Virus record (IMG/VR): IMGVR_UViG_2974546594_000001
Location: 1-57,535 of that record
Direction: 5' to 3' (one strand)
Origin: a virus
Lineage: Duplodnaviria > Heunggongvirae > Uroviricota > Caudoviricetes > Ackermannviridae
Length of the DNA stretch: 57,535 nt
Made by a program: the position numbers and the translations under genes. The notes beneath the pieces are model-generated. The model ran no database searches and was not told the DNA's origin. It saw only the letters and a program-made list of their open reading frames with translations. This document shows, piece by piece, positions 5,480 to 53,942 of the stretch (the stretch's first letter is position 1; each line of letters begins with the position of its first letter).

Positions 5480-6589
5480 TTAAAACAAACGTTTATAAGT
5501 TCGACCATTGTACTGCATGCGGCCTAATATGAAAACTGTGGTAAAAGGGATACATCCAAACAGCACGACGATAATCACTTCCCAAGTTTTAAGATCTCGC
5601 CATTTCAAATATTCCATTTCCTTCATCTCAACTCGGTTGTATCCCTTACTGATATTGACCGCAACTTCTTGGAACACGGATATGCCCATTGGTTTCCCAG
5701 TCAATGAAAGTCCGTTACGAGAATGGAGTTCCATGTTGTTCATGCCGTCGGCAAATGACGTAGACTTACCCCAATTAATTTTCATATCCTTTGAAATATC
5801 GGTGACTACAATAACATCGTTCTTTTTACCGCCAGACCATGCATATAGAAGTCCCTGAAAATATTCAACAGGCTGGCCAGAAGTCACAACCCAAACGATA
5901 TTAACCTGACGTGAAGCACCTAACGTTTTCAGAGTATTGTTCAGATAATCATTCCAGTAATCAACAGGAATGTCCATCCCTGACATATTCAGAACACGAG
6001 TTACTCGGTAATAATCATACACCCTCGGATATGAAGGGATATGCTCTTTGAACTTCTCAGCGAATTGCTGGTCAGATTTAGAGAATAATGAATCTTTGTT
6101 GCCCAGCACATAATTCATATATGAATGTTCACGTGCCGCAGGTTCCCCGATTTTAACTTGTGCCCAACGCGGAGGCTCTGTAGTACCCTGACGATCAATA
6201 CGGTCAATGCTCAGATCACCGACGGTTGTTAATACGTCCCAATCAACGTCATAAGAGTGCTCATAGCATGTGCTGCAATGACGCGTTTGGGTACACGACC
6301 GATTATTTCCTGAACCTGTACAAGATGTTGTGTAATAACACATACATTCATAAGAATGTTCACAACCCACCTTATTCCGTTGCTTATCAGTTACATATCC
6401 ATTCAGGATTTCCACGTCCCCAGAACTACCAAGGGAGAAAGCAGCATATAATCCCGACTGGATAAGGCAAGATAATACGATAACAATGGCCGTGGCGATC
6501 AAAGTCTCCTTTGGCTCATGAGTCTTGCGGTGATATATCACAAACAAGATGGCCAAAATTACAGGAACCACAAACAGAAGGTAAATCAT
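5480..6589 (-). CDS. Membrane protein with Cys-rich segment and TPM-like periplasmic domain
   Basis: 2 N-terminal TM, 1 C-terminal TM, CEHSYECMC..C..C..C..C cluster, VNIVWVVT..W.GGKKNDVIVV. Confidence 0.55.
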   Translation of the reverse strand: MIYLLFVVPVILAILFVIYHRKTHEPKETLIATAIVIVLSCLIQSGLYAAFSLGSSGDVEILNGYVTDKQRNKVGCEHSYECMCYYTTSCTGSGNNRSCTQTRHCSTCYEHSYDVDWDVLTTVGDLSIDRIDRQGTTEPPRWAQVKIGEPAAREHSYMNYVLGNKDSLFSKSDQQFAEKFKEHIPSYPRVYDYYRVTRVLNMSGMDIPVDYWNDYLNNTLKTLGASRQVNIVWVVTSGQPVEYFQGLLYAWSGGKKNDVIVVTDISKDMKINWGKSTSFADGMNNMELHSRNGLSLTGKPMGISVFQEVAVNISKGYNRVEMKEMEYLKWRDLKTWEVIIVVLFGCIPFTTVFILGRMQYNGRTYKRLF

Positions 6590-7678: not shown

Positions 7679-8920
7679 TCAGCGTTTCAAGAGTGTCATG
7701 AGGTTCACACTTTTAGAAGGATACACAGTACCATTTCGGCTCATGGTGTCCAATTTACCAACTGACAAACAAACCTCAGACGGTTCCCAACGTGTACCCT
7801 GCTGTAAATGCCAGATATGTAGAGGAACACCCGTCTCAAAGAACACGGGCATCTTCCACTTCTGGACGCCTGGAACGTGCCCTGCAGGAGCTTTTTCGCA
7901 CAACAGGGTATCTGGTAGCCAGAGTGAACGGGCTTCCCAGAGAGGTGCACAGGAGTATTCAGGCCAAATACGTTCCATATAATCGATCTCGTCCCATGTA
8001 CGCTCGGCGTCCCACCCGATGTAACGGGTATTCTTCAGTCGGAAGAATTTCTTCAGCCAACAAGCACCGGAGGTCTCAAAGTTCAGACGATTGATAAACG
8101 TGATGTGGCCAAACTCTTCAACGCATTCCTGAAACGCTTTCTCAAGGTCGGTTTCGAGTATATCACATTCTTCGTCTGTAATAGGACAACCGTTAATCTT
8201 TTTCTTCCCGTGCTTGGTCACCCAATCATCACGGTTGGATAAGAACGCCGCGCCGTTACGATTGGATTCGCTACCATCACGGTCACGCAACATGAACCCA
8301 GGGACGTCTATATCCCATATGTTACCGAAGACCATGTTCAGGGCTTCCAGGAAGTTCCAGGCGCTCAGGCGACCGAAGTATTTCCATGACATCGCCGTAT
8401 TCCACAGTTCGGTGAACTGGTCTTCCTTGGTAGTGCATTCCAACATCCAACGAAAAGAATCCATTTGGGTTTTACCACCCAACCAATCGATATAGGACTG
8501 AACGCACGGAATCATTTTCGACTTACGATAACGACAATCTGTATCGAAGCGCATACGATCAAAGTTCAGGTTATACCAATCAGAAAATCGCTGAAACTCT
8601 TTCGGAGATTGTGGGGGTACAGGAAATTCACTGTAAATTGTCCATGGTCCAATCCCATTATAGCAACACCCCCACAAAAAGGCCATCCAAATCTTGCGCT
8701 CGATCTTTTCGAGCTGTGTGATGCCTTCTGTAACCTCGATGGCATAATCCATCAGACGGACTTGCTGGTTATGCTCTTCAGTGTAGGATAGCGCCTCCAC
8801 CCATGCCTTGAGCAGGTACATGCGATTTTCTGGCTTACGATAATCTACTGCCAGATCAATCGGGTATTTCCATTTTTCAGGGGCTTTATATCCCTGCGGC
8901 ATTTTAGACAGATGCGTCAT
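7679..8920 (-). CDS. Amino acid:DNA transferase (aGPT-pyrophosphorylase clade 2-like), thymidine hypermodification
   Basis: 413 aa; FDTDCRYRK, YFGRLSAWNFLE, FETSGACWLKK, RYIGW recall aGPT-Pplase2 of ViI-like phages; near the kinase; alternative start 8902. Confidence 0.7.
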   Translation of the reverse strand: MTHLSKMPQGYKAPEKWKYPIDLAVDYRKPENRMYLLKAWVEALSYTEEHNQQVRLMDYAIEVTEGITQLEKIERKIWMAFLWGCCYNGIGPWTIYSEFPVPPQSPKEFQRFSDWYNLNFDRMRFDTDCRYRKSKMIPCVQSYIDWLGGKTQMDSFRWMLECTTKEDQFTELWNTAMSWKYFGRLSAWNFLEALNMVFGNIWDIDVPGFMLRDRDGSESNRNGAAFLSNRDDWVTKHGKKKINGCPITDEECDILETDLEKAFQECVEEFGHITFINRLNFETSGACWLKKFFRLKNTRYIGWDAERTWDEIDYMERIWPEYSCAPLWEARSLWLPDTLLCEKAPAGHVPGVQKWKMPVFFETGVPLHIWHLQQGTRWEPSEVCLSVGKLDTMSRNGTVYPSKSVNLMTLLKR

Positions 8921-9254
8921 CCTTCACCTCGGCTTCGAGTTGGATATCTTCGGGGCTTACTACGGGCTGTCCCAGAGACCAGATAGGCAGGAAACGACGA
9001 TCATTCGTCACCAACCAAATTTGCTTGGCGGTTTTCGTCTTTTCGGAAATAAAATGCTGGGCATTGACTTGGGTACGAGCCAAACCCACCTGACGCCAAG
9101 AACCGAAATCCTTAGAAGAAGGATTGGTATTCAGTTGAAATTGTGGGACGATTTTATTCTGTTCCGGATAATAACGGACAGCGTTAATCATCTTCGCATC
9201 ACCACGGTAATCAATAGCAACAGCGACAACGTTGCGTGGAATGAGGATTTTCAT
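8904..9254 (-). CDS. Hypothetical protein (116 aa)
   Basis: Operonic ORF. Confidence 0.65.
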   Translation of the reverse strand: MKILIPRNVVAVAIDYRGDAKMINAVRYYPEQNKIVPQFQLNTNPSSKDFGSWRQVGLARTQVNAQHFISEKTKTAKQIWLVTNDRRFLPIWSLGQPVVSPEDIQLEAEVKDDASV

Positions 9255-9255
9255 T

Positions 9256-9459
9256 TTAATTCCTTTTGAAACTCTGAATTATGTTATAGACGAAAGGCGT
9301 TAATAAGATAGCACCCCCCAAATAATATAACGCGTAAACGTTCAATATTTCGGTTGAATCCAACTCAACGATGCCCAAATATTTCATGACACCGACAAGC
9401 ACAGCTGTGATACACATCACCAATCCGACGAACACAAAATATTTAGACATCTGTTTCAT
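9256..9459 (-). CDS. Small two-TM membrane protein
   Basis: Two hydrophobic stretches in 67 aa. Confidence 0.6.
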   Translation of the reverse strand: MKQMSKYFVFVGLVMCITAVLVGVMKYLGIVELDSTEILNVYALYYLGGAILLTPFVYNIIQSFKRN

Positions 9460-9461
9460 TT

Positions 9462-10355
9462 CTAACCCTTACTCAACAGGCCGAGAAGGGATACAGAGGA
9501 CTTTGTTACCTCTCCCTTGGCGCTCGCCTTGGTTTTAGATTTGGTCGCCTTCTCAGGGACTCGATGCGCTAGAGGATCATCCCCACCGACTTCACGCGTC
9601 ATTGGGTCAGTTTCACAGAATCCGTAGAAATCTTTGATGTCGAGATCGATCGCACCGATATCCATCTGGTATGCGATGGCATCACCAACAACCCAAAGAG
9701 GAGCATCAAACGGCATGACCGCTATTTCGCTGCGGTGGTCCATGTCATACACATTTTCATTAGGCTTCATATATACGATATCTTGACCGCTGTAAGCATC
9801 TTCTAATACATTCCAGCCCAGCGCCAGCATTTCAGCTTTCGACTTCTCAAACTCCTTGGAGTAAGATTCGTTGCGTGACCAGCCGGAGTCCCCTGCTTCC
9901 TTACCAGAGCGACCACGGATGCGTGCATCATACTGATAGCGGTCTGGGTATGCAAAATAAAGCAACGCCAGAGATTCAATCGGATAGTTCTTGAACATCC
10001 ATTCAGGACGCCATTTATCCGATAGCATGAGGGGTTCACCCTCGCACACCAAAGTGTAACCCTGAGCCAGCCAGCCTTTGACCAGATCACGGGCGATATC
10101 ACCCGAGCCTGTGGCAGCATGAATAGCATCCATGGAAGTCCAGGAAGCCAGACCGGATTTGTTGGACACAGTATACTGGCCAACGAAGATTAACTTCAGC
10201 TCTTCGAATTTCAGACCGAATGGGCGCGTCTTGTCGCCAATGGTGTAGGTGAGTTCAGTAGGCTCCAGCTTAGTGCGGAGCCATTCGATGAACTGAACAA
10301 CACGGGTGCCTTTACCCGTGCCAGAGGTTCCTTTCACTACAATTATTTTAGCCAT
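9462..10355 (-). CDS. P-loop kinase, putative 5-hydroxymethyluracil-DNA kinase
   Basis: N-terminal GTSGTGKGT Walker A, CEGEP; neighbourhood of aGPT-Pplase as in ViI-like phages. Confidence 0.65.
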   Translation of the reverse strand: MAKIIVVKGTSGTGKGTRVVQFIEWLRTKLEPTELTYTIGDKTRPFGLKFEELKLIFVGQYTVSNKSGLASWTSMDAIHAATGSGDIARDLVKGWLAQGYTLVCEGEPLMLSDKWRPEWMFKNYPIESLALLYFAYPDRYQYDARIRGRSGKEAGDSGWSRNESYSKEFEKSKAEMLALGWNVLEDAYSGQDIVYMKPNENVYDMDHRSEIAVMPFDAPLWVVGDAIAYQMDIGAIDLDIKDFYGFCETDPMTREVGGDDPLAHRVPEKATKSKTKASAKGEVTKSSVSLLGLLSKG

Positions 10356-10696
10356 TATGCATCTTCCTCAATACGCCAGCTCACACCGCCCAACCAGGGA
10401 GACCAGAAAACAGCAACCTGTGGACGTTCGTTTTCTACAAACTTCACTTTATACTGGTCTTCAAAGTTATAGAAAATTTCATCGTCATCTGGTGCCATAC
10501 CGTTTTCTATCAGAACACGCTTTAACTCCAGCGCCGCACCAACGGAAGTGGGTGTGGTTTGTTTACGAATGAAGTTGTTCACATGGATAATAACGCCATC
10601 CATATCGCTATCACCGGAACGCTTGTCTGGGGTTTCCCCAAACTTAGATTGTTCTTGCACGATGTCCTCCTCAACGGACGTATTGATAATGGCCAA
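10355..10696 (-). CDS. Hypothetical acidic protein (113 aa)
   Basis: Operonic ORF with overlaps. Confidence 0.6.
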   Translation of the reverse strand: MAIINTSVEEDIVQEQSKFGETPDKRSGDSDMDGVIIHVNNFIRKQTTPTSVGAALELKRVLIENGMAPDDDEIFYNFEDQYKVKFVENERPQVAVFWSPWLGGVSWRIEEDA

Positions 10697-11405
10697 TCAG
10701 GCGATTCACCACTTCGACAATATTCCGGTTCAGGAAGTCGAAGTGGTTCTGGCCTTCTACTGGTTTAATATAAAGCATATCTTCCGAGTTCGAAAGATCC
10801 AGTTTTTCATAATTTCCCTGAGGAACAAAGATGACAAAAATATTGTTCATCGCACAGGGTTCAACGTATTTCGGATTATCATCAATTAAAACATCACCTG
10901 CCAAAAGATGCTTTTCGTCGGTGCTGACAAACCCGTTGAAGATGCCAGGGAACTTGTCATAGACAAACTGGCGCTTGCTGCGCTCGTGTTCTGGCTCACA
11001 CTTAGATACTGCGATCAATTCAACATTTTCAAAGTCTTCGAGTAGGATCTTCTTCAGATTCACCAGGAACTCGTAAGCGCCTGGAAGCGGGTTCATCTTG
11101 GCATACAGGTCCGGCATGCGCCACCAATCCATAGGATCACGTCCTGTAGGTGAATCCATCCATTGACCAGCAACAAACACACGGCGTGTCAACCATGCTG
11201 GGTGAGCGCGTTCCCGCATGAGGATCGCCAAATCACCAGCATGAGCCATATAGCACTCTTTGGTGATACGCTGGAAATCATTGGGATAATCATGACAACC
11301 CATGTTTTCCGCAGCAGCTTTTGAATTGGAAATATTAAACCAATCCACCCAAGGGGAGAGGCTATCAACCAAAGTCAAGTCTACGTCTACCAGGATACGA
11401 TACAT
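10671..11405 (-). CDS. HAD-family 5'(3')-deoxyribonucleotidase (NT5C-like)
   Basis: ILVDVDLTL (DxDxT), LPGAYEFL, GDVLIDDNP; GGTGGA SD before MYRIL; alternative start 11453. Confidence 0.8.
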   Translation of the reverse strand: MYRILVDVDLTLVDSLSPWVDWFNISNSKAAAENMGCHDYPNDFQRITKECYMAHAGDLAILMRERAHPAWLTRRVFVAGQWMDSPTGRDPMDWWRMPDLYAKMNPLPGAYEFLVNLKKILLEDFENVELIAVSKCEPEHERSKRQFVYDKFPGIFNGFVSTDEKHLLAGDVLIDDNPKYVEPCAMNNIFVIFVPQGNYEKLDLSNSEDMLYIKPVEGQNHFDFLNRNIVEVVNRLIGHYQYVR

Positions 11406-11445
11406 TCCACCGATTTTAGAATTGGCATCATACAGACCAACATGA

Positions 11446-11808
11446 TTATTCATCAGACTTCTCCACTTGATCATAACCAGTTGCGGTGCATTGCTCTTCT
11501 GTGCAATCTGCATACAGAACCACAGAAGATTCCTTCACGTAAGTGGTGCAGTGATAGGTTTCATCTTCCTGGATGGAATCATCATAATTGCAAACAGTTT
11601 GCAACGGACCAGGAGTGGTGTTATCCAACGCAGCATGCGCCTTGATGGTGTCTTCCATCTTATTCACCGCTTGCTGATTGGTGAACGTCGGCGCATCGAG
11701 GTCAACCGAATCCAGAAGAGTTGCACATGCTGACAATGAAAACGCCATGGTCGTCACAGCGAACACCTGCATGATTTTGTAAAAAAGGACATCTTTTTTA
11801 AGTTTCAT
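11446..11808 (-). CDS. Putative lipoprotein
   Basis: MKLKK + hydrophobic stretch + lipobox LSAC; 4 further Cys. Confidence 0.7.
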   Translation of the reverse strand: MKLKKDVLFYKIMQVFAVTTMAFSLSACATLLDSVDLDAPTFTNQQAVNKMEDTIKAHAALDNTTPGPLQTVCNYDDSIQEDETYHCTTYVKESSVVLYADCTEEQCTATGYDQVEKSDE

Positions 11809-11836
11809 AACAATACCTGTTGTCAAAGGGATAACA

Positions 11837-11868
11837 GGGGGAATTATATCCCCCTTTGGTTTATTGAA
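11837..11868 (-). promoter_or_regulatory. TTCAAT-N14-TATAAT promoter; the -10 hexamer is exactly the loop of GGGGGA/TCCCCC
   Basis: TTCAAT AAACCAAAGGGGGA TATAAT TCCCCC. Confidence 0.8.
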
Positions 11869-14865
11869 TCAACCTTTCTTGCCCATCATGGACAACAGGT
11901 TAACTCGACGTTTATGAGACCAACCAACCACATCCAAGATAGACTGAATTGGCTCTATAAAGGTCTTTTCAAACGTGGTGTGGTAATCCACCCATTTATC
12001 CAATCCCAATTCTGGAGGAAGGAAGTCAGGGAAGGCTATGCGATCATTCCCCACAGGATTGCCAGGTTTCAGGTTGATGATTTTAACCTTATCACCGGAT
12101 TCGATAGGCGGAAGACCGAGATCTTCGTGCTTATCGATCAGCTTGTTGTACATAATACAAGCCTTGGCAGCGAAGTGCGTACCGCTGATGTAATTCCCGT
12201 TCGCGTCTAACCACTTCTCAATATCGCTCACACCAGATGCCTGAGCGATATCATCCACGGTGAGTTCCATATATTCCTTTTTGTATCCAGCGATTAATTC
12301 CTGAACCTCCGCCTCAGTACCGAGCAGGACTTTCTCATAACATTTGACAAGACGCTCACGACACCATTCCGGCGTTGTAGATTTACGCGCTTCCAGACCT
12401 TTGAATTTGATCTTTGGTTTCTCATACTTGATGCCTTCGCTATCGTATACTGCCATGCAATACATCTTCTTGGCTCGCCATACAGCAGACGATGCGATGA
12501 CCTCACGTTCCCAGACCATGCGCTGCTCAAACCCGTTCATGGTATTACACAGCAATTGCGCCCATTCACTAGTTTTTGGTTGGTAATTCTCTTTGATCCA
12601 TTGGTCGATGTTATCAACAAGTTTATGATGATCCTTTTCATCAGGCCATAATTGCTTGACCAGGCGTTCAATGCAAATATAATTGGAGTCTGTATCACCT
12701 GCGATAACAAAATCCTGACCAGTGGTGCCACAAAGTTTGTTCAGATAATCATCAGTGTGGCGTTTGTTCCATTTATTGATCAGCTGGCCGGAAGTGGTAA
12801 TTGCTTCAGCGATGTTGATGTTGAAGTATTCTTTAAACCAGACGTTAGAAATTGCACCATATCCTGCGTTCATCAAGATCTTCAGACCTTGTTGTAACGT
12901 ATCTTGGGCAACTCCCAAATCTTCCCACTTATGCATGACTTCAGTCAGGTGATCAAGGTCGATATGCTTGTGTTCTTCATACCATTCAGGATCGTAGAAA
13001 CGAGACTTCATGGCGGATTCAAGGTGGAAATCACCTTTAGACATTTCCTTACACCAACCAGCCCATTGCTCATACTTCAGGCCAGTTGCTTTCTCTCCTT
13101 TACGGTCAGCGTATATGCCTCGCATAATTTCGGAAAGGAAGGACATCTTCTCATTACTGAAGAACTGAACGTTCGGGGTAAACGAAACGTTATATCGGCG
13201 TAATGTTTCAAAATGGAATTCGCCCAGCGCGACCAATTCATCAACAACTTGTATGCGTTCATCAATAGCACGCTGCAACTTGTCGTGAAGATTTTTGAGA
13301 TGACGACGTTTATTCATCGGTGTTGTCATATCATTCATCGCTTTGGTCAATTCCTCACACATGGCCTCAATAATATCACGGCGTGTGTGCTTATCAGAAA
13401 CGATAGTCTCTGGACCAAGGTTGTATTGCTGTATGATGTGGGGATACAGGGAGTTTAAGTCCTCAGAGAAGACCCAGAAATATATCCCTGGTGCAACCTC
13501 CATGACATATGCGCCTTCAAAATCTGTTGGCCCATCATAGACGCGCTGGATTTTCGGGACAATCCCCTTCTCATAAAGACGATAGTAACACATCGCCAGC
13601 CATGGTGCTACAGTCCCAAGACCGTCTTCATAGTTAGATTTGGTGCGATACGCCAATACGAACATCAGCTGTATCAAACGCAGCTTTTGTTCTAAACGCC
13701 ACACGAGTTTGACGTCTTTGATACCATATCGGGTGTGTTTGCAATAATCATTAAAATATAGATCATACAATGACTTGCTTTCACTATAATCCAACTTCTT
13801 CTCACCGAGTTCACAATAAGCGATCCAATCCAGTGAGTATTTTTCGCGGGTTGTGTACGTGTGTTTCTTGTAAACTTGCATGTAGTCCATCATAGGACAA
13901 CCCACGAATTGATAAGAAGTCACGTCGCCTTTACGGTCTTTGATGAAACGTTTCTTGAGTTTGCCCCAAGGACTGAGGCGCTCTGCCTGAGTTTCACCGA
14001 GAACCTGCGTAATACGTTCAACCAAGTACGGGCTATCAAACGTTTCGATGTTCCAGCCAGTCCAACCATCAAATTGACGTTCAGACCAATAATCTAAGAA
14101 AGCGCGAAGAAGTTCTTGTTCAGTCGTGTATTCTTTGTATTCAACCTCAAGACCACCTATCTCTTCATCATTTGGATCATATTTGAATTTATGGCGATCC
14201 TTAGAACACGGCATACCCCAGACATAGAACTTGTTGGTGTTCATGTCTTGAAGCTGGATGAGCGTAATAGGGAAGGCGGCATTCATGTTCTGTGTGATCT
14301 TACCATTACTATCAATGATAGGGAACTGGTCAGTCACGTTGTTGGAAATAAAGGAACCTGGGAAGTGCTCTCGAACGAAATCATGGTTGGCCAACACTTG
14401 CTTATGGAATCGGCGAACACGCGCCTCGCTCCCCTTAAACGTGTGGGATTCAATCGTCGCGTGAGGAAATGGGCCTTTAGTCATTTCTCCATCGCGCCAC
14501 CCAGCCGAGAAAACTTCGATATCCACGTTGGCGATGTGAATATTTGAGTAATCGGGGGTAATCATCCCAGGAAAACTATGCGCTATGAATTGATATGCAT
14601 AATCCGTTTGTCCGTAAACAGCAGCGCCTTCGACCTCCTTATATTCCTCCAGATAGTTGTCGGCGTCACGCATTGACGCAAATTTTTTAGACACCAACGG
14701 TTCATTGAGGAGGCCAATCTTTTCAACTTTGGAATAATCGGCTGTGGGTAAATACAAGGTGGGTTCGAATTTCTTACGCAACATACGGCGATTACCGTTG
14801 TCGTCTGCAATACGAATCAGAAGGTCGTTACCCTGTCGGGCAACGTTCGTATAGAAAACAGTCAT
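11869..14865 (-). CDS. 43: Family B DNA polymerase (T4 gp43-like), 998 aa
   Basis: DIE, GWNIETFD exonuclease motifs; DLNSLYP, KILMNAGYG, GDTDS; real start MTVFYTNV (14865) rather than 15024. Confidence 0.97.
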   Translation of the reverse strand: MTVFYTNVARQGNDLLIRIADDNGNRRMLRKKFEPTLYLPTADYSKVEKIGLLNEPLVSKKFASMRDADNYLEEYKEVEGAAVYGQTDYAYQFIAHSFPGMITPDYSNIHIANVDIEVFSAGWRDGEMTKGPFPHATIESHTFKGSEARVRRFHKQVLANHDFVREHFPGSFISNNVTDQFPIIDSNGKITQNMNAAFPITLIQLQDMNTNKFYVWGMPCSKDRHKFKYDPNDEEIGGLEVEYKEYTTEQELLRAFLDYWSERQFDGWTGWNIETFDSPYLVERITQVLGETQAERLSPWGKLKKRFIKDRKGDVTSYQFVGCPMMDYMQVYKKHTYTTREKYSLDWIAYCELGEKKLDYSESKSLYDLYFNDYCKHTRYGIKDVKLVWRLEQKLRLIQLMFVLAYRTKSNYEDGLGTVAPWLAMCYYRLYEKGIVPKIQRVYDGPTDFEGAYVMEVAPGIYFWVFSEDLNSLYPHIIQQYNLGPETIVSDKHTRRDIIEAMCEELTKAMNDMTTPMNKRRHLKNLHDKLQRAIDERIQVVDELVALGEFHFETLRRYNVSFTPNVQFFSNEKMSFLSEIMRGIYADRKGEKATGLKYEQWAGWCKEMSKGDFHLESAMKSRFYDPEWYEEHKHIDLDHLTEVMHKWEDLGVAQDTLQQGLKILMNAGYGAISNVWFKEYFNINIAEAITTSGQLINKWNKRHTDDYLNKLCGTTGQDFVIAGDTDSNYICIERLVKQLWPDEKDHHKLVDNIDQWIKENYQPKTSEWAQLLCNTMNGFEQRMVWEREVIASSAVWRAKKMYCMAVYDSEGIKYEKPKIKFKGLEARKSTTPEWCRERLVKCYEKVLLGTEAEVQELIAGYKKEYMELTVDDIAQASGVSDIEKWLDANGNYISGTHFAAKACIMYNKLIDKHEDLGLPPIESGDKVKIINLKPGNPVGNDRIAFPDFLPPELGLDKWVDYHTTFEKTFIEPIQSILDVVGWSHKRRVNLLSMMGKKG

Positions 14866-14944
14866 TGTTTGTCTCCGGTTAACCGTGCCGTTAGCACGTC
14901 CCCGTAATTTAGCCGAGGAACGTTCAATGACCAAGGAGTTTATT

Positions 14945-15517
14945 ATGGCAATCCCCTTTGTGAGTATGATCCCAGGGGCGCTCAAGCAACTCTGGAACCT
15001 CGGGACTGATTTGATCCAATACAAGCGGGAAGTTGTTCAGGCCAAACACGATGTCAAGCTAGAGGCTATCAAGTCCTCCTCAGATTGGGAGCTGTCTAAG
15101 ATCACCGAAGTCGGCGGGTCTTGGAAAGACGAATTCTGGACTATCGTGTTAGCTGTTCCCGCTATCCTCGTCATGACTGCTCCGGTTGTGGAACTAATTC
15201 TGTTCCCTGATGAGTATCATAAAGGGGATTTCATCAAAGCAGTAATCGACGGCCTCCAGGCGCTCGATACCGCACCTGAATGGTATACCTATTCGTTATT
15301 GACAGCAATTAGTGCATCATTCGGTATCAAGGGGTATAACCATTACAAAAGCAACAGCCGGAAGGCGCAAGCTGTGGATGCTCTCAAGCAGTTTGGGGTC
15401 AAAGTGGTTAACAAAGATCCCACTGTTGTTACTCAGTCGGGTTCTCCCGATCTTGAGTCTGCTCCCCCAGCTGGGTCTACTGCGACCTCTGGTGCGTGGC
15501 CTGATCTGAAGAAATAA
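14945..15517 (+). CDS. Putative holin (GTA-type 3TM holin-like)
   Basis: W..SWKDEFWTIVLAVP, PEWY, SFGIKG pattern; GGAG SD before MAIPF. Confidence 0.6.
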   Translation: MAIPFVSMIPGALKQLWNLGTDLIQYKREVVQAKHDVKLEAIKSSSDWELSKITEVGGSWKDEFWTIVLAVPAILVMTAPVVELILFPDEYHKGDFIKAVIDGLQALDTAPEWYTYSLLTAISASFGIKGYNHYKSNSRKAQAVDALKQFGVKVVNKDPTVVTQSGSPDLESAPPAGSTATSGAWPDLKK

Positions 15518-15522
15518 GTTAG

Positions 15523-15547
15523 AGGGGAGGAAACTCCCCTTTCTTTT
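15523..15547 (+). terminator. Intrinsic terminator
   Basis: AGGGGAG-GAAA-CTCCCCT-TTCTTTT. Confidence 0.8.
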
Positions 15548-15558
15548 GGTGTTAAGGA

Positions 15559-15771
15559 ATGAAAGTGGTAAACAAGAGATTGCTCGTCACCCAAGGCGGG
15601 GCGACGATAGTGAGAGGAAGGATTTATGAACAAATTCAGCTGGGTGATCATAAGACACGCCTGACTGTCAAGGCACCGGACGGTGGATGGCCCACAAAGG
15701 TGGTTGTCCCCGACGGCCTCATAGAACGAGGGAAAGCAGTGTACAAAGGAGCAGAATTCAAAATTTATTAA
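15559..15771 (+). CDS. Hypothetical protein (70 aa)
   Basis: AAGGA SD, fills the gap. Confidence 0.6.
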   Translation: MKVVNKRLLVTQGGATIVRGRIYEQIQLGDHKTRLTVKAPDGGWPTKVVVPDGLIERGKAVYKGAEFKIY

Positions 15772-15776
15772 AATAT

Positions 15777-15817
15777 TTATTGAATAAAGTTTACTTCTTC
15801 AATAACTGGCGTATACT
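15777..15817 (+). promoter_or_regulatory. Sigma70-like early promoter (TTTACT-16-TATACT) with TTATTGAA/TTCAATAA inverted repeat
   Basis: Near-identical element at 53988-54028. Confidence 0.7.
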
Positions 15818-15866
15818 TCTAATTGTAGTACGAACAAACAACAATCTGAAGAGAAGGAAATACATC

Positions 15867-16424
15867 ATGGCAATCGAAATTATCGCTCAATCCAAATCCG
15901 GCAAAACTGTATTGTTCGGCACCGAAGAAGGCCGTGTAATCACCACTTTGGGCACAGTTGACGGCAGCAACCCCGTAAAAGGCGGTCGCTTCCTGGTTGA
16001 GTACGGTTCTCGTGTCGTGATGGTAAGTAAAATTGATGGGCGTGATATCACTGCTCCTCGTCAAGAATTCTTTGATTCACGTTCTGCCGCCATGCAATTC
16101 TTTTTCTTCCAGAAACGTCACGAACTGTTCGTTGAAGCGAAAGACGCAGGTCTGGACGACGCAACGGCTGAGCTGATTGCCGAAGGTAAAATGACTCTTG
16201 AGACTGCTCTGGGAGACATGGATTACGAAGCCGAAGCGCATTATATTGAATATTCCGCATATCAGAACGAATGTGAAGATGATCCGGAAGATGATGGATT
16301 TGATCCAGATCTTCACGGCGGCGAGGATGACAATACTCCTTCTCTGGAAGTTATCATGGCAGGTGGTCAGGCCGCTTGGGAATGGCAGAATGAAAAGAAC
16401 GCATGGTTGGATTCCCGCCTCTAA
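15867..16424 (+). CDS. Hypothetical early protein, acidic C-terminus (185 aa)
   Basis: GAAGGA SD before MAIEII; follows the early promoter. Confidence 0.75.
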   Translation: MAIEIIAQSKSGKTVLFGTEEGRVITTLGTVDGSNPVKGGRFLVEYGSRVVMVSKIDGRDITAPRQEFFDSRSAAMQFFFFQKRHELFVEAKDAGLDDATAELIAEGKMTLETALGDMDYEAEAHYIEYSAYQNECEDDPEDDGFDPDLHGGEDDNTPSLEVIMAGGQAAWEWQNEKNAWLDSRL

Positions 16425-16472
16425 TATGACAAAGCCCCTTCGGGGGCTTACTTTGAACTGAAGGACTATATC

Positions 16473-17015
16473 ATGAGCACCCCAAAAACTCCTGTCCGTA
16501 TTGCCGTCGAGCCTCTGCTGGTTGATGCTGAGAATGCTGCTGAGCAGTACGCGAACAAAGTCATCAAGAACATAATGGACGATCTGGCATCCAACGGCTG
16601 GGACGTCGAGAAGTGCGCTCCGTGGCCATCTTCGGTTGGTGTCAAGTTTGGTGATCCAGATTACCAACGAATGAAATCAAAACATGCGCTCTACCGTTCT
16701 TTGACCCAGGCAGTGAATCCTTCTTACATACCTGGGAAGCCGGATATTGTCAAAGCTGATCCTGAGCGCCATGCTCTGTTTGTCAAAGAAGCACGTCGAA
16801 ACGCTGCGATGCAATATGAGTCTTTCATTTGTAAACTGGAAGACAAAATTGGTGGGCACAGCGCGGCTGTGCTGAATGGTTCCCATATATGGGGTTATTC
16901 AATCCTAACCGTGACTACACCAGAGGGGATCGAGCGCTGGAAGACTCAGACGATTATCAATGTGTCCAAGCTGGGCAAACTCTTTAACCAATATCCAACG
17001 AGGAAGGTGAAATGA
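16473..17015 (+). CDS. Hypothetical early protein (180 aa)
   Basis: GAAGGA SD. Confidence 0.75.
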   Translation: MSTPKTPVRIAVEPLLVDAENAAEQYANKVIKNIMDDLASNGWDVEKCAPWPSSVGVKFGDPDYQRMKSKHALYRSLTQAVNPSYIPGKPDIVKADPERHALFVKEARRNAAMQYESFICKLEDKIGGHSAAVLNGSHIWGYSILTVTTPEGIERWKTQTIINVSKLGKLFNQYPTRKVK

Positions 17016-17386
17016 TGAAAAACTTCGCACAAGAATTACAGACTACGATTGACCAGGCTCAGATTTGGGAAGCCATGGGGATAGTTGAAAAAGCCGTTGA
17101 TATCTTTGTTTGCAAAATGAAGAAGCAACTCGTTTCCCAAGCAAATCGCGGAGTTGAAATTGATGACATGGTGTACGCTGTTGGTGGCCACAGGTTTGAC
17201 GAAATATTAACCGCATTTCAACAGGCATATAAGTCTCAAAAATACCCAACAGACAAGCAAGTCGAAAAGTTCAAAACATTGTTGGTGGCGAGTCTTCTGA
17301 AGGAAGGTTTGAAGTTCGAATTACACAAGGATGAAAGAACAGATGTCGTAACAATGAGATTCACAGTATACACAAACGATATCTAA
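17012..17386 (+). CDS. Hypothetical early protein (124 aa)
   Basis: ATGA overlap with the upstream gene. Confidence 0.7.
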   Translation: MMKNFAQELQTTIDQAQIWEAMGIVEKAVDIFVCKMKKQLVSQANRGVEIDDMVYAVGGHRFDEILTAFQQAYKSQKYPTDKQVEKFKTLLVASLLKEGLKFELHKDERTDVVTMRFTVYTNDI

Positions 17387-17387
17387 A

Positions 17388-17415
17388 ATAAAGGGGCTTA
17401 ATGCCCCTTTGTTTA
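17388..17415. terminator. Bidirectional terminator between convergent genes
   Basis: AATAAAGGGGC-TTAAT-GCCCCTTTGTTT. Confidence 0.7.
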
Positions 17416-17871
17416 TTTCCCATCCCAAAAGTCGTCTTCATCGTCTACTTCATCAAACGCAGAATCCAATTCTGCGTCAGAGTACTCTGGAAGGCGACCA
17501 TTCTGTTTCAGATATTCAATCTCGTCATCTTCCAATTGAAGATCCGTTGCTATAAACAGTGCTCCGGTCTCTTCATCATGTTCAATGCTATAAGACGTAT
17601 ATTCAGAACCCTGAACTGTAATGATGATAGATGTTGGATCTTCTGGATCCACGTGAGCTTCAAACGGGATACCGTCAATTGGGGCGTCTTCTAAGAATGT
17701 TGCAAGGGCTACGGCAGCGCGGACAACATCCGTGCCCTGTACCGATGCATAAATTTCTTCTGCGCCCGTTTCCCCGCGCTCAAAGAATTCAATCGTAGTT
17801 CCGTCTTGAACCCCAGTCCAGATAGGCATATCTGCTGGTGTATCGGCTTCAAATAATTTTGAAATTGGCAT
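17413..17871 (-). CDS. Acidic late protein, possible head internal/core protein
   Basis: CTAAATA at 17904-17910; very D/E-rich; N-terminal KLFE resembles a prohead-protease site. Confidence 0.6.
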   Translation of the reverse strand: MPISKLFEADTPADMPIWTGVQDGTTIEFFERGETGAEEIYASVQGTDVVRAAVALATFLEDAPIDGIPFEAHVDPEDPTSIIITVQGSEYTSYSIEHDEETGALFIATDLQLEDDEIEYLKQNGRLPEYSDAELDSAFDEVDDEDDFWDGK

Positions 17872-17906
17872 GTTCGTTTCCTCTATGGATAAACCTTATG
17901 GGATAT

Positions 17907-18356
17907 TTAGGCTTCTCTCTTCGCCAGCCCTGGTTTAAACACGACCATTTCTTCAACGTTATTAGCGCTCATAGAGGCTATGGAATCGAATCCTTTATTG
18001 ATAAGTTCCTTCACATTATCGTGAATCTTACCAGGTTCTATCCCCAACTCACGCATTTTGTTTTCCCAAACAGAAACGTTATTAGAATCTATCACCAGAG
18101 TCTTCTTGGCCTTAACACGAAATGCCATGACAACAGGTTCACCAGATTGACGATAGCGAGCGGCGTTTTCCGCGTAGATCTGCGCTTTTTCTGGATCCCC
18201 TGTCAGGTAAAATCCAGCACCCATCGTACCAGAGTCAGTCTGGCCAAATTTTTCAAAATCAAAGACGTCGAATTCAACATTCGACCCATGATATAAAACA
18301 ATATCCGTAAAATCGGGCAATGTTGATTCACGATAGAATTCTAGGAAGGTTTTCAT
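17907..18356 (-). CDS. ADP-ribosyltransferase-like protein (HYE clade, ART-PolyVal-like) with T4-type capsid-targeting sequence
   Basis: MKTFLEFYRE N-terminus; LYHGS, GAGFYLT.D...A..YA, GFDSI, EEMVVF.P. Confidence 0.7.
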   Translation of the reverse strand: MKTFLEFYRESTLPDFTDIVLYHGSNVEFDVFDFEKFGQTDSGTMGAGFYLTGDPEKAQIYAENAARYRQSGEPVVMAFRVKAKKTLVIDSNNVSVWENKMRELGIEPGKIHDNVKELINKGFDSIASMSANNVEEMVVFKPGLAKREA

Positions 18357-18358
18357 AG

Positions 18359-18389
18359 ATACCCCACACTTACTGTATGGGGTATTTAG
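18359..18389 (-). promoter_or_regulatory. Late promoter CTAAATA with anti-SD hairpin
   Basis: CTAA-ATACCCCATAC-AGTAA-GTGTGGGGTAT-CT-ATG. Confidence 0.8.
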
Positions 18390-18395
18390 GAGGGA

Positions 18396-19589
18396 TCAAT
18401 CAGGGGTAAACTCGTTCACAGGAACTTGTTCCGGCATAGACAATTCGGGGCATGCTGCCTTCATTGGCTCAACATACGGCTTGCTACCAACAATCCAGAA
18501 CAGAGCGTTTTCGTTGAGCAGTTCTGGCTTATGCTGTTGGATCCAGGTCATGACCTTGCCTTCATAGCGAGGATGCAGCTCAATATCACCCCACTGATAA
18601 TCCATCAGGTCATTATAGCGAACCCAATTCGTTGTATGCAAATCCCAATGGTGTACTGCAAAGCGTGGGAGCGTTATCTCCGGCTCTCCCTTCTCGCGGA
18701 TACCCATCAGGAGGCCAGCCAGCGAAACGCTCTTAGAGGCATGCTGAAGATCCTTCTTGCCGTACACATAATCTGGGTTGTCGTGATAGCAACGAGTGAA
18801 ATCCGTTATGTGCGGAAGATTAGCTTGTTTTCCAATAATACGCAAACGACTTTCAATAAAGTCCAGACGGTTGGGACCAATCCCGATCAGATATACATTT
18901 TTCAGATTTGGTTTCGGGTGCATAGCCAGCCCTGTCAAAATGCTGGTACAAGAATTACATGAACCAGCAGGAATGATCAGATCTGTGATATGGTCCGGAA
19001 TGTTAGCAACCTGCTCGCCGCCCAGCATATGAAATCCTGCAATCCTCTCCGGAGAATGCAACGTATGATCCAGAGTGATCCCATACTCTAGATAATATGC
19101 TTTTGGATTCTGCTGCTCAATCAATTTCTTGCAGCGCGGCTGGATAGTGCTGTTGTAACCCGAACCGACAAAGTTGAATTCGCTGCCGAACCAGGCGCTC
19201 ATCTTCACCATTTCATGGTTCATACACGTGGTGGGTTTGGTAGCGCCCAGGACTGTAGTTGTCTTGCCGCCGAAATGCCGTGAGACTGCTGTCGCCATAG
19301 GGGATTGCGGACTACCAACGACAGTACCATGGATAAGGTCTGGGGAGCCTCCGGCCTTTAAATGCTCAACCATCAGCCAGATGGCCTGACGCAATTTACT
19401 GCCGTTGATGCCCTGCTTGCCATCTGTATAGTTGGACAGCGGCGCGAAGTAATCTTCACGCTTGAACCAGACCTGTTGATTGGTTTCAGGGTTGGCAACG
19501 AGTTCACACGGGGTGTGCTTGTAGAGGTAGTCTTCCCAGTGGACCAGGTTGCGGTCGAGGGAAAGTGTATCGAAGATGGACTTGTTCAT
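18396..19589 (-). CDS. PLP-dependent enzyme (fold type II), putative decarboxylase of the 5-NeOmdU pathway
   Basis: HTP..VWFKREDY..GINGSKLR (PLP lysine), IIPAGSCNS, HPRYEGK. Confidence 0.75.
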   Translation of the reverse strand: MNKSIFDTLSLDRNLVHWEDYLYKHTPCELVANPETNQQVWFKREDYFAPLSNYTDGKQGINGSKLRQAIWLMVEHLKAGGSPDLIHGTVVGSPQSPMATAVSRHFGGKTTTVLGATKPTTCMNHEMVKMSAWFGSEFNFVGSGYNSTIQPRCKKLIEQQNPKAYYLEYGITLDHTLHSPERIAGFHMLGGEQVANIPDHITDLIIPAGSCNSCTSILTGLAMHPKPNLKNVYLIGIGPNRLDFIESRLRIIGKQANLPHITDFTRCYHDNPDYVYGKKDLQHASKSVSLAGLLMGIREKGEPEITLPRFAVHHWDLHTTNWVRYNDLMDYQWGDIELHPRYEGKVMTWIQQHKPELLNENALFWIVGSKPYVEPMKAACPELSMPEQVPVNEFTPD

Positions 19590-52046: not shown

Positions 52047-53942
52047 ATGGCAACTCAAAGCTTCAGCGTTGCGCCGTCCGTTCAGTGGACTGAGCGTGAT
52101 GCCACGCTTCAGACGTCCCCGTCCGTTGTTGTTCAGGGCGCGACCGTCGGCAAATTTCAATGGGGTGAAGTTGAACTTCCAGTGCTGGTGACTGGTGGTG
52201 AGACAGGTTTGGTGAAGAAATTCTTCAAACCCAACGACAGTACTGCGACCGATTTTCTCGTAATCGCGGACTTTTTGTCTTACAGCTCTATGGCATGGGT
52301 GACCCGTGTTGTTGGTCCTCTGGCCAAGAACTCTGTTACCAAAGGTCAGACAGCGATTGCGATCAAAAACAAACTGGATTTTGAAACAGCAAGTCCTTCG
52401 GCGTCCATCACTTGGACTGGTCGTTATCCAGGTTCCCTGGGTAATGATATTGCTATCAATGTTTGTGATGCTGCTGGATTCTCAACTTGGGAATTCCGTA
52501 ATAACTTTGCATACGCACCTCAGTCTGGTGAATTCCATGTAGTTGTCGTAGACAAAGTTGGTCGCATTACCGACTCTGCTGGCGCGGTCGGTCAGGTTGA
52601 CCGTATCTCCGTTTCTGGTACGGCTACTGCTGCTGGCACCATCAGTGTGGCAGGTGAAGATATCGCATATCTGGATACTGATACTCCAGCCACTTTGGCA
52701 ACCAAAATCGGTACAGCGCTGACTTCCCTGACAAGTGTTTATTCTTCTGTTGTCGTGAAGTCCAACACTGTCATCGTGACCCATAAAGCTATTGGTCCCC
52801 AGACAGTTACTGCTATTGTTCCAGATGATAAAGGACTGACTGCAACCGCCGTGATTACCACTGTTGGCGCATCTGGTTCTATTATCGAAAAATACGAACT
52901 CATGCAGAACACACAGGGTTCCAAAAAGTCCGATGGCGCGAATGCGTACTTCAAAGATGTCATCAATGATACATCAAATTGGGTGTACACCTTCGCGAGC
53001 GAACTGGTTGCAGGTGTCGTTGAATTAGAAGGCGGCGTAGACGATTATAACATCAACCGCGTGGCGGCTATCCAAGTCTTGAACAATGCTGAAGCATATG
53101 ATGCGAAGCCAGTATTTGCGTACTGTGAAGAACTGATTGAGCAACAAGCATTGATCGACTTATCTACTGAGCGAAAAGATACGGTATCTTTCGTATCCCC
53201 GCTCCGTGATACGGTTGTTGGCAACCGTGGTCGTGAAATGGATGATGTCGTTGCTTGGCGTGAAAGCCTTGTTCGCGACTCTTCTTATTTCTTCATGGAT
53301 GATAACTGGGCATATGTGTACGACAAGTACAACGACAAAATGCGTTGGATTCCGGCTTGTGGTGGCACCGCAGGTGTTTGGGCGCGAAGCATTGAAATCG
53401 CGGGTATCTACAAATCTCCGGCGTTCCACAACCGTGGTAAATACAACAACTATAATCGAATGGCGTGGTCTGCGTCTTCTGATGAACGTGCTGTGTTGTA
53501 CCGCAACCAGATCAACAGCATCGTAACCTTCTCCAATGAAGGCATCGTCCTGTATGGTGACAAAACTGGCCTGACCCGCCCGTCGGCGTTTGACCGTATC
53601 AACGTTCGTGGCCTGTTCATCATGGCTGAGCAGAACATCGCCGCAATCGCCAAATACTATCTTGGTGAGAACAATGACGCGTTTACACGTGGTCTGTTCA
53701 GCAATGCGGTTCGTCCTTATATTCGCCAGCTGGCAAATATGGGTGCGATCTACGATGGTAAAGTCAAGTGTGACGAAGATAACAACACTGCTGATATTAT
53801 TGCAGCAAACCAATTAGTCATGGGCGTGTGGTTAAAGCCAGAGTACAGCATAAACTGGGTGTACTTGGATTTCGCCGCCGTTCGTCCAGATATGGAATTT
53901 TCAGAACTCGAATCTGGCGGTGGCATCGTAGCTGCTTCCTGA
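52047..53942 (+). CDS. 18: Tail sheath protein (gp18)
   Basis: GKFQWG, YPGSLGNDI, SPAFHNRG, FDRINVRGLF; CTAAATA at 51998. Confidence 0.96.
   Translation: MATQSFSVAPSVQWTERDATLQTSPSVVVQGATVGKFQWGEVELPVLVTGGETGLVKKFFKPNDSTATDFLVIADFLSYSSMAWVTRVVGPLAKNSVTKGQTAIAIKNKLDFETASPSASITWTGRYPGSLGNDIAINVCDAAGFSTWEFRNNFAYAPQSGEFHVVVVDKVGRITDSAGAVGQVDRISVSGTATAAGTISVAGEDIAYLDTDTPATLATKIGTALTSLTSVYSSVVVKSNTVIVTHKAIGPQTVTAIVPDDKGLTATAVITTVGASGSIIEKYELMQNTQGSKKSDGANAYFKDVINDTSNWVYTFASELVAGVVELEGGVDDYNINRVAAIQVLNNAEAYDAKPVFAYCEELIEQQALIDLSTERKDTVSFVSPLRDTVVGNRGREMDDVVAWRESLVRDSSYFFMDDNWAYVYDKYNDKMRWIPACGGTAGVWARSIEIAGIYKSPAFHNRGKYNNYNRMAWSASSDERAVLYRNQINSIVTFSNEGIVLYGDKTGLTRPSAFDRINVRGLFIMAEQNIAAIAKYYLGENNDAFTRGLFSNAVRPYIRQLANMGAIYDGKVKCDEDNNTADIIAANQLVMGVWLKPEYSINWVYLDFAAVRPDMEFSELESGGGIVAAS

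Follow-up and report, generated by a model that had tools for sequence, protein, structure and literature searches.

The window analysed here, 57.5 kb of DNA (positions 1 to 57,535 of IMG/VR record IMGVR_UViG_2974546594_000001), is the first part of a 161.5-kb phage genome, which belongs to a ViI-like Salmonella phage of the genus Kuttervirus (Ackermannviridae), shares 99% identity with Salmonella phage barely, and has its relatives in Kuttervirus, Agtrevirus, Taipeivirus, Limestonevirus and other Ackermannviridae. Its minus strand carries the genes for a family-B DNA polymerase and for three DNA hypermodification enzymes, a kinase, an amino acid:DNA transferase and a pyridoxal phosphate (PLP)-dependent decarboxylase, and each of these four proteins contains a short hydrophobic peptide of one common type. 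The peptides are described below, together with their probable role as docking motifs for the sliding clamp of the phage.

Genes of the thymidine hypermodification pathway

The polymerase, a gp43 homologue (11869..14865, minus strand), matches PF03104, PF00136 and phrog_262, as well as the RB69 and T4 polymerase structures (E 1e-58). The open reading frame (ORF) listed for this gene reaches position 15024 from a TTG codon located 53 codons upstream of Met54 (14865); the extension (14866-15024, minus strand) is probably not translated, because all orthologues begin at Met54 and align from residue 54 onwards.

The kinase gene (9462..10355, minus strand) encodes a 5-hydroxymethyldeoxyuridine (5-hmdU) DNA kinase 2, the orthologue of ViI gp243 (PF18747 HMUD2, E 1e-144; 81% identity to Vi01_196), and the transferase gene (7679..8920, minus strand) encodes the orthologue of the serine:DNA transferase gp247 of ViI (PF18724 ADDT, E 2e-57; 87% identity to Vi01_199). 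The decarboxylase (18396..19589, minus strand), orthologous to ViI gp226 (96% identity to Vi01_182), gives a PALP match and displays a type-II PLP fold, its closest folds being D-cysteine desulfhydrase and 1-aminocyclopropane-1-carboxylate (ACC) deaminase. A sequence-only reading of the window had placed the three enzymes in these same families, in agreement with the domain matches and with the 81-96% identity to the ViI proteins. The three genes follow the same order as in ViI, small membrane-protein genes are located between those of the kinase and the transferase, and a phmmer comparison with the genome's own ORFs returned no paralogues of the kinase, the transferase or the PLP enzyme.

The ViI pathway is comprised of five proteins, gp67, gp160, gp226, gp243 and gp247 (PMC5889632, PMC8989533), and in its published chemistry 5-hmdU in DNA is phosphorylated, serine is transferred, and decarboxylation yields 5-(2-aminoethoxy)methyldeoxyuridine (5-NeOmdU) (PMC8989533, PMC5889632). 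The two remaining members, located via the Vi01 annotation, are also encoded by the genome: a gp67 orthologue (PF18748 HMUD1 kinase, E 2e-116; 99.5% identity to Vi01) and a gp160 orthologue at genome coordinates 74987-76213 (PF18723 HMUDK_hel, E 2e-83; 78% identity to Vi01). The pathway is thus made up of the same enzymes as in ViI, with 78-100% identity and a chemistry that is already known, and by orthology the DNA of the present phage would be expected to contain 5-NeOmdU.

Peptides shared with the DNA polymerase

The polymerase ends in KRRVNLLSMMGKKG (11872..11913), the kinase in KSSVSLLGLLSKG (9465..9503) and the transferase in SKSVNLMTLLKR (7682..7717), and the PLP enzyme carries SKSVSLAGLLMG internally (18702..18737; residues 285-296 of 397). 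All four peptides, as read from the translations, are encoded on the minus strand and follow the pattern h-[NS]-L-h-x-h-h, hereafter called class 1. The sequence-only reading had located all four in the right places, with positions a few bases out of frame. Its consensus, run as a regular expression over every ORF of at least 40 amino acids (aa) in the six frames of the whole 161.5-kb genome, matched four of 1134 ORFs, which were exactly the polymerase, the kinase, the transferase and the PLP enzyme, versus a mean of 0.07 and a maximum of 1 match for this strict expression after residue shuffling (100 shuffles).

In a test that was independent of the enzymes, a 12-mer of the polymerase was scored with BLOSUM62 against all 98,846 genome windows. 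Four of the nine best windows were situated at the extreme C-terminus of real proteins, namely a 69-aa protein (rank 1), gp160 (rank 3), the kinase (rank 5) and the transferase (rank 9). The carriers of the peptide outside the 57.5-kb window are therefore a gp160 paralogue and this 69-aa Cys-rich protein; the C-terminus of the gp160 orthologue reads VRSINLLEKMKK here and RGSVNLLDRLKKPE in ViI. The gene for the 69-aa protein (genome 135194-135403, plus strand; phrog_4789) adjoins the DNA ligase gene, and its terminal KGKINLLNMMRK is the best match to the polymerase tail in the genome. Searches of NCBIfam, Pfam and the ESM Atlas with this protein gave nothing useful; it is annotated as a 'transcriptional regulator' in Vi01, and could be a clamp-bound regulator.

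As judged from their translations, four of the five pathway proteins carry a polymerase-type or gp33-type peptide. The proposal that all three hypermodification enzymes are tagged holds for the kinase, the transferase and the PLP enzyme, but needs to be widened to a pathway of five proteins, in which gp160 is tagged and gp67 is not.

Two other tails of similar appearance were set aside. The tail-tube protein (genome 122151-123287), which ends in SSLLGLLQDVVKN, is a structural protein and a chance look-alike. A 369-aa protein (phrog_2087; 5480-6589, minus strand), probably a membrane protein, ends in TYKRLF; this tail follows a hydrophobic segment, is not conserved in the orthologues, and probably arose by chance.

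Flexible context, conservation and a second motif class

The kinase motif is preceded by a disordered linker rich in K, A, S and P (9504..9599, minus strand; residues about 253-284). In the AlphaFold2 model the predicted local distance difference test score (pLDDT) stays below 50 throughout the stretch between residue 253 and the C-terminus, with a short helix predicted at residues 290-295, which is the position of the motif. The alignment of 11 kinase orthologues lacks conserved columns between V266 and S287/L290; residue L290 itself does not vary. The same layout, a conserved domain followed by a linker of variable length and sequence with indels and then by a conserved terminal motif, was found in the lineage A alignments, which comprise 21 distinct transferases, 19 kinases and 15 gp160 proteins, with S-V/N-N-L conserved among the transferases. 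The motifs are likewise conserved across genera while the linkers diverge. Retention of the motif in orthologues, which had been proposed as a check, was thus found, with linkers that diverge and gain indels; a conserved motif behind a diverging linker is the signature of a short linear motif.

Across the wider ADDT family, most of 150 representatives have no tail and nine end in LF. In Limestonevirus, as in some further relatives, a homing-endonuclease-like domain is fused to the N-terminal side of the kinase (529-532 aa, annotated F-LimXI), and these fused kinases keep a clamp-type tail (L011:14239-15834, L038:9290-10879, L039:9290-10888).

The internal motif of the PLP enzyme is situated in a flexible surface insertion (18660..18749, minus strand; residues about 281-310). 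The AlphaFold2 model of this enzyme has a mean pLDDT of 93.7, and the insertion, with block values of 61-74, is its sole soft stretch, the rest scoring 89-99; the class-1 motif is consequently located in the only low-confidence loop of the model. Among 117 homologues the loop varies in length and sequence and carries a motif of the VNLL, KxLW or LxxFF type; homologues with a short loop have none.

A second class of motif, [KR][KR]L[WF], was found in two other lineages, Vibrio phages and one IMG/VR contig. In the Vibrio phages K452 (L009) and 207E48 (L014), K-T-[KR]-[KR]-L-[WF] is found on the kinase and the transferase and also at the aligned position of the PLP loop, which reads PKTR[KR]LFG in these phages and GTKKLWG in the IMG/VR contig G001. 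The K452 orthologues of gp160 and of the 69-aa protein also belong to class 2, the latter ending in KTRKLW, and the late transcription coactivator gp33 of K452 ends in KTKRLF. The polymerases of both Vibrio phages keep KKRVNLFALGG, followed by a lysine-rich extension of 27 residues that ends in K[RK]LW. The polymerase of contig G001 has the class-1 tail only, and the kinase, transferase, gp160 and PLP loop of this contig carry [KR][KR]LW; its gp33 ends in TKKLF and its gp55 sigma factor in SLRRLFKK. At ORF ends, [KR][KR]L[WF] occurs seven times in K452 (0.09 expected) and four times in G001 (0.06 expected). In addition, a 38-aa ORF of K452 (53102-53218 of that record, plus strand), in another frame of the gene that follows gp33, ends in TLTKRLW, a perfect class-2 motif; it could be a chance occurrence, a frameshifted product or a mis-called gene.

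Class 2 is used in the present phage as well, because its gp33 (PF16805) ends in KSKKLI and because a 155-aa SLOG/YspA-family protein (PF10686; genome 65307-65774, plus strand) ends in GKPKTKRLL, a class-2-type tail that is conserved in the Kuttervirus, Taipeivirus and Miltonvirus orthologues. The SLOG/YspA-family protein is a candidate for a further clamp client. The simpler idea that the tails of the enzymes follow that of the polymerase in every case is ruled out by contig G001, where the polymerase belongs to class 1 and the enzymes to class 2; two interchangeable motif classes are the better fit. In every lineage, each tail-bearing enzyme has, by its translation, one of the two peptides found on the polymerase, gp33 or gp55, which would be difficult to account for if their common partner were not the clamp.

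Proposed docking to the sliding clamp

A gp45-family clamp is encoded at genome coordinates 71386-72069 (phrog_223, E 2e-65; PF09116, E 8e-4, which is below the curated cut-off), matches the RB69 and T4 gp45 structures 1b77, 1b8h and 1czd (E 2e-12), and is adjoined by the gp44/62 clamp-loader genes. In RB69, the C-terminal peptide of gp43 was co-crystallised with the gp45 clamp (polymerase 11-mer, PDB 1b8h; PMC2988020), and in T4, gp43, gp55 and gp33 bind gp45 via interchangeable C-terminal epitopes on divergent linkers (PMC2988020). The earlier suggestion that the polymerase tail aligns with the gp43 clamp peptide was borne out, phmmer aligning SHKRRVNLLSM column for column with the RB69 gp43 end YEKKASLFDM. 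By homology, the tail is most likely the clamp peptide, with which the phage polymerase would hold its sliding clamp through KRRVNLLSMMGKKG.

From these data we propose, with a probability of roughly 0.72, that the peptides, carried by the enzymes that convert 5-hmdU to 5-NeOmdU, are short linear motifs with which these enzymes dock to the gp45-type clamp of the phage itself, and that DNA modification is in this way probably tethered to freshly replicated DNA. The sequences and models themselves show that the motif is shared and conserved, lies in a flexible setting and is the same as that carried by canonical clamp clients. The clamp would be the partner, docking would raise the rate or completeness of modification, and several enzymes could share one trimeric ring. 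The view that the enzymes share the polymerase's clamp-binding type of peptide, and hence are tethered, gains support from the polymerase alignment, the presence of a gp45 clamp and loader, the conservation of the motifs, the PLP loop and the change of class between lineages. As a mechanism, clamps loaded in replication would remain on the daughter DNA, where the gp243-type kinase, the gp247-type transferase, the gp226-type decarboxylase and the gp160-type HMUDK_hel protein would hook onto the hydrophobic site otherwise used by the polymerase; docking would concentrate the enzymes on new DNA and permit one-dimensional scanning.

Several points weigh against clamp docking or limit what it could do. 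The tails found here are hydrophobic with basic K/R flanks, and the T4 epitopes are acidic and hydrophobic (PMC2988020); the basic flanks are a variant of the T4-type epitope, the family-wide feature being the hydrophobic core. The assignment of class 2 as a clamp binder would follow from functional homology of gp33 and gp55, and not from likeness to T4 sequences. The transcription factors of the present phage do not share the class-1 peptide, because gp33 ends in KSKKLI and gp55 has no clear terminal motif. The protein gp67 is an active 5-hmdU kinase, and no tail was found on its orthologues in the present phage, Vibrio phage K452 and contig G001. This tail-less kinase may be recruited through gp160, because a gp67-type kinase and a gp160-type domain are fused in one protein in Bacillus phage SP10 (PMC5889632). 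The ViI enzymes, whether purified or present in expressing lysates, modify naked DNA when no clamp is there (PMC8989533, PMC5889632), so that tethering is not needed for the chemistry and docking can only affect its rate, coverage or timing. Finally, the T4 glucosylation ratio was reported not to be set mainly by the contact between T4 alpha-glucosyltransferase and gp45 (PMC13216743), which indicates that such contacts can have small effects.

The basic character of the motifs, unlike the acidic T4 epitopes, also leaves room for true docking motifs that address a hub other than the clamp, such as a gp32-type single-stranded DNA-binding protein, a helicase or loader, a phage-specific scaffold, or a complex of the enzymes with each other via a shared amphipathic helix. 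The partner is deduced from sequence, and two motif classes in one genome could mean two partners. This alternative is nevertheless unlikely: the polymerase tail is homologous in position to the peptide crystallised with the RB69 clamp, gp33 and gp55 carry class 2 and have the clamp as the known partner of their tails, and we know of no protein besides the clamp that binds the tails of gp43, gp33 and gp55 alike.

Much less probable is a role in turnover or localisation, in which the tails, for instance as a C-terminal degron recognised by a host protease or as a helix for membrane targeting, would set when or where the enzymes are present, without any relation to DNA tracking. Hydrophobic C-terminal ends can act as degrons, and the small membrane-protein genes between the kinase and transferase genes would suit a membrane location; the PLP motif, however, is internal, which excludes a C-terminal degron there, the motifs also occur on the replicative polymerase and on the coactivator gp33, and the motif is too short, and its flanks too polar, for membrane insertion. 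The last possibility, a resemblance without shared function that reflects chance or the composition of lysine-rich phage C-termini, can draw on the shortness and degeneracy of the motifs and on look-alikes such as the ends of the tail-tube and 369-aa proteins, but hardly deserves credence and is already contradicted by the conservation seen in the alignments, as the motifs lie far above shuffled expectation in three genomes, are kept across genera while the linkers diverge, and change class together in five proteins, and the look-alike tails are not conserved in orthologues.

Clamp docking of the individual enzymes could be carried further, to a single clamp on daughter DNA that bears all three enzymes, kinase, transferase and decarboxylase, simultaneously and acts as a processive sliding line of three stations. 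The two motif classes would then address different ring sites or affinities; as a result, clamps would be either contested by, or handed over between, modification, late transcription (gp33) and replication, and this would set the level of partial thymidine replacement. We consider this extension doubtful; the assembly line that follows the fork and the link to sequence context, both part of the sequence-only reading, are conjecture, and so is the placing of such a line on a single ring.

Clamp-binding peptides, and the binding of a phage DNA-modifying enzyme to gp45, are already known. The T4/RB69 epitopes of gp43, gp55 and gp33 are likewise short hydrophobic C-terminal peptides on divergent flexible linkers, interchangeable between clients. 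The peptides described here differ from them in that their carriers are DNA base-modifying enzymes, that they are basic and form two classes, h-[NS]-L-h-x-h-h and [KR][KR]L[WF], and that one of them is internal, in the PLP loop. Internal loop motifs are known among clamp clients.

The precedent for a modifying enzyme is T4 alpha-glucosyltransferase, whose binding to gp45 was reportedly described by Sommer et al. in 2004. To our knowledge, no defined shared motif has been assigned to that enzyme. It is, like the enzymes discussed here, a post-replicative phage DNA-modifying enzyme that contacts the clamp (a contact predicted in the present case), with the coupling of modification to replication as the proposed purpose. 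In contrast to the one enzyme of T4, four of the five pathway proteins are tagged here, and the chemistry is thymidine hypermodification through 5-phosphomethyldeoxyuridine (5-PmdU). The T4 enzyme co-purifies with gp45 and binds it (PMC13216743). A comparable logic is known from DNMT1, which binds PCNA through a PCNA-interacting peptide (PIP) box, and from the 'tool-belt' clients of clamps (reviewed in PMC9690074), where a DNA modifier is recruited to new DNA by a short motif, as is predicted here; DNMT1 is a eukaryotic maintenance methyltransferase whose motif and clamp are unrelated to those of the phage, and is a single enzyme, unlike the multi-step pathway tagged here.

The word 'clamp' is absent from the ViI pathway papers (PMC5889632, PMC8989533), which do not discuss the tails, and literature searches combining the clamp with thymidine hypermodification found no paper that describes the tails or mentions the clamp. 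The sequence-only reading likewise knew of no such description; the T4 alpha-glucosyltransferase-gp45 contact is a precedent for the idea (PMC13216743). A tagged pathway would carry the principle known from T4 alpha-glucosyltransferase-gp45 and DNMT1-PCNA beyond single enzymes to a pathway of several steps. A docking tag on almost all enzymes of the pathway offers a concrete and testable answer to the question of how post-replicative hypermodification enzymes find and cover an entire genome quickly enough to outpace host nucleases. It would also provide a sequence handle with which the clamp clients of Ackermannviridae could be listed and unknown DNA-modifying enzymes spotted in metagenomic phages, and could improve in vitro DNA-modification reactions by the addition of clamp and loader.

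A cluster of another kind was observed on the metagenomic T4-like contig L059 (7873-15394), where the genes for a Tet/JBP dioxygenase, a 255-aa protein, a PLP enzyme, an ADDT-family transferase and a P-loop kinase 3 are located just upstream of gp45/44/62. The transferase ends in SRNILEFME and the 255-aa protein in NSLEKFL, and the PLP loop reads TNVLDFSG; this cluster has the look of a separate hypermodification pathway whose tags are T4-like.

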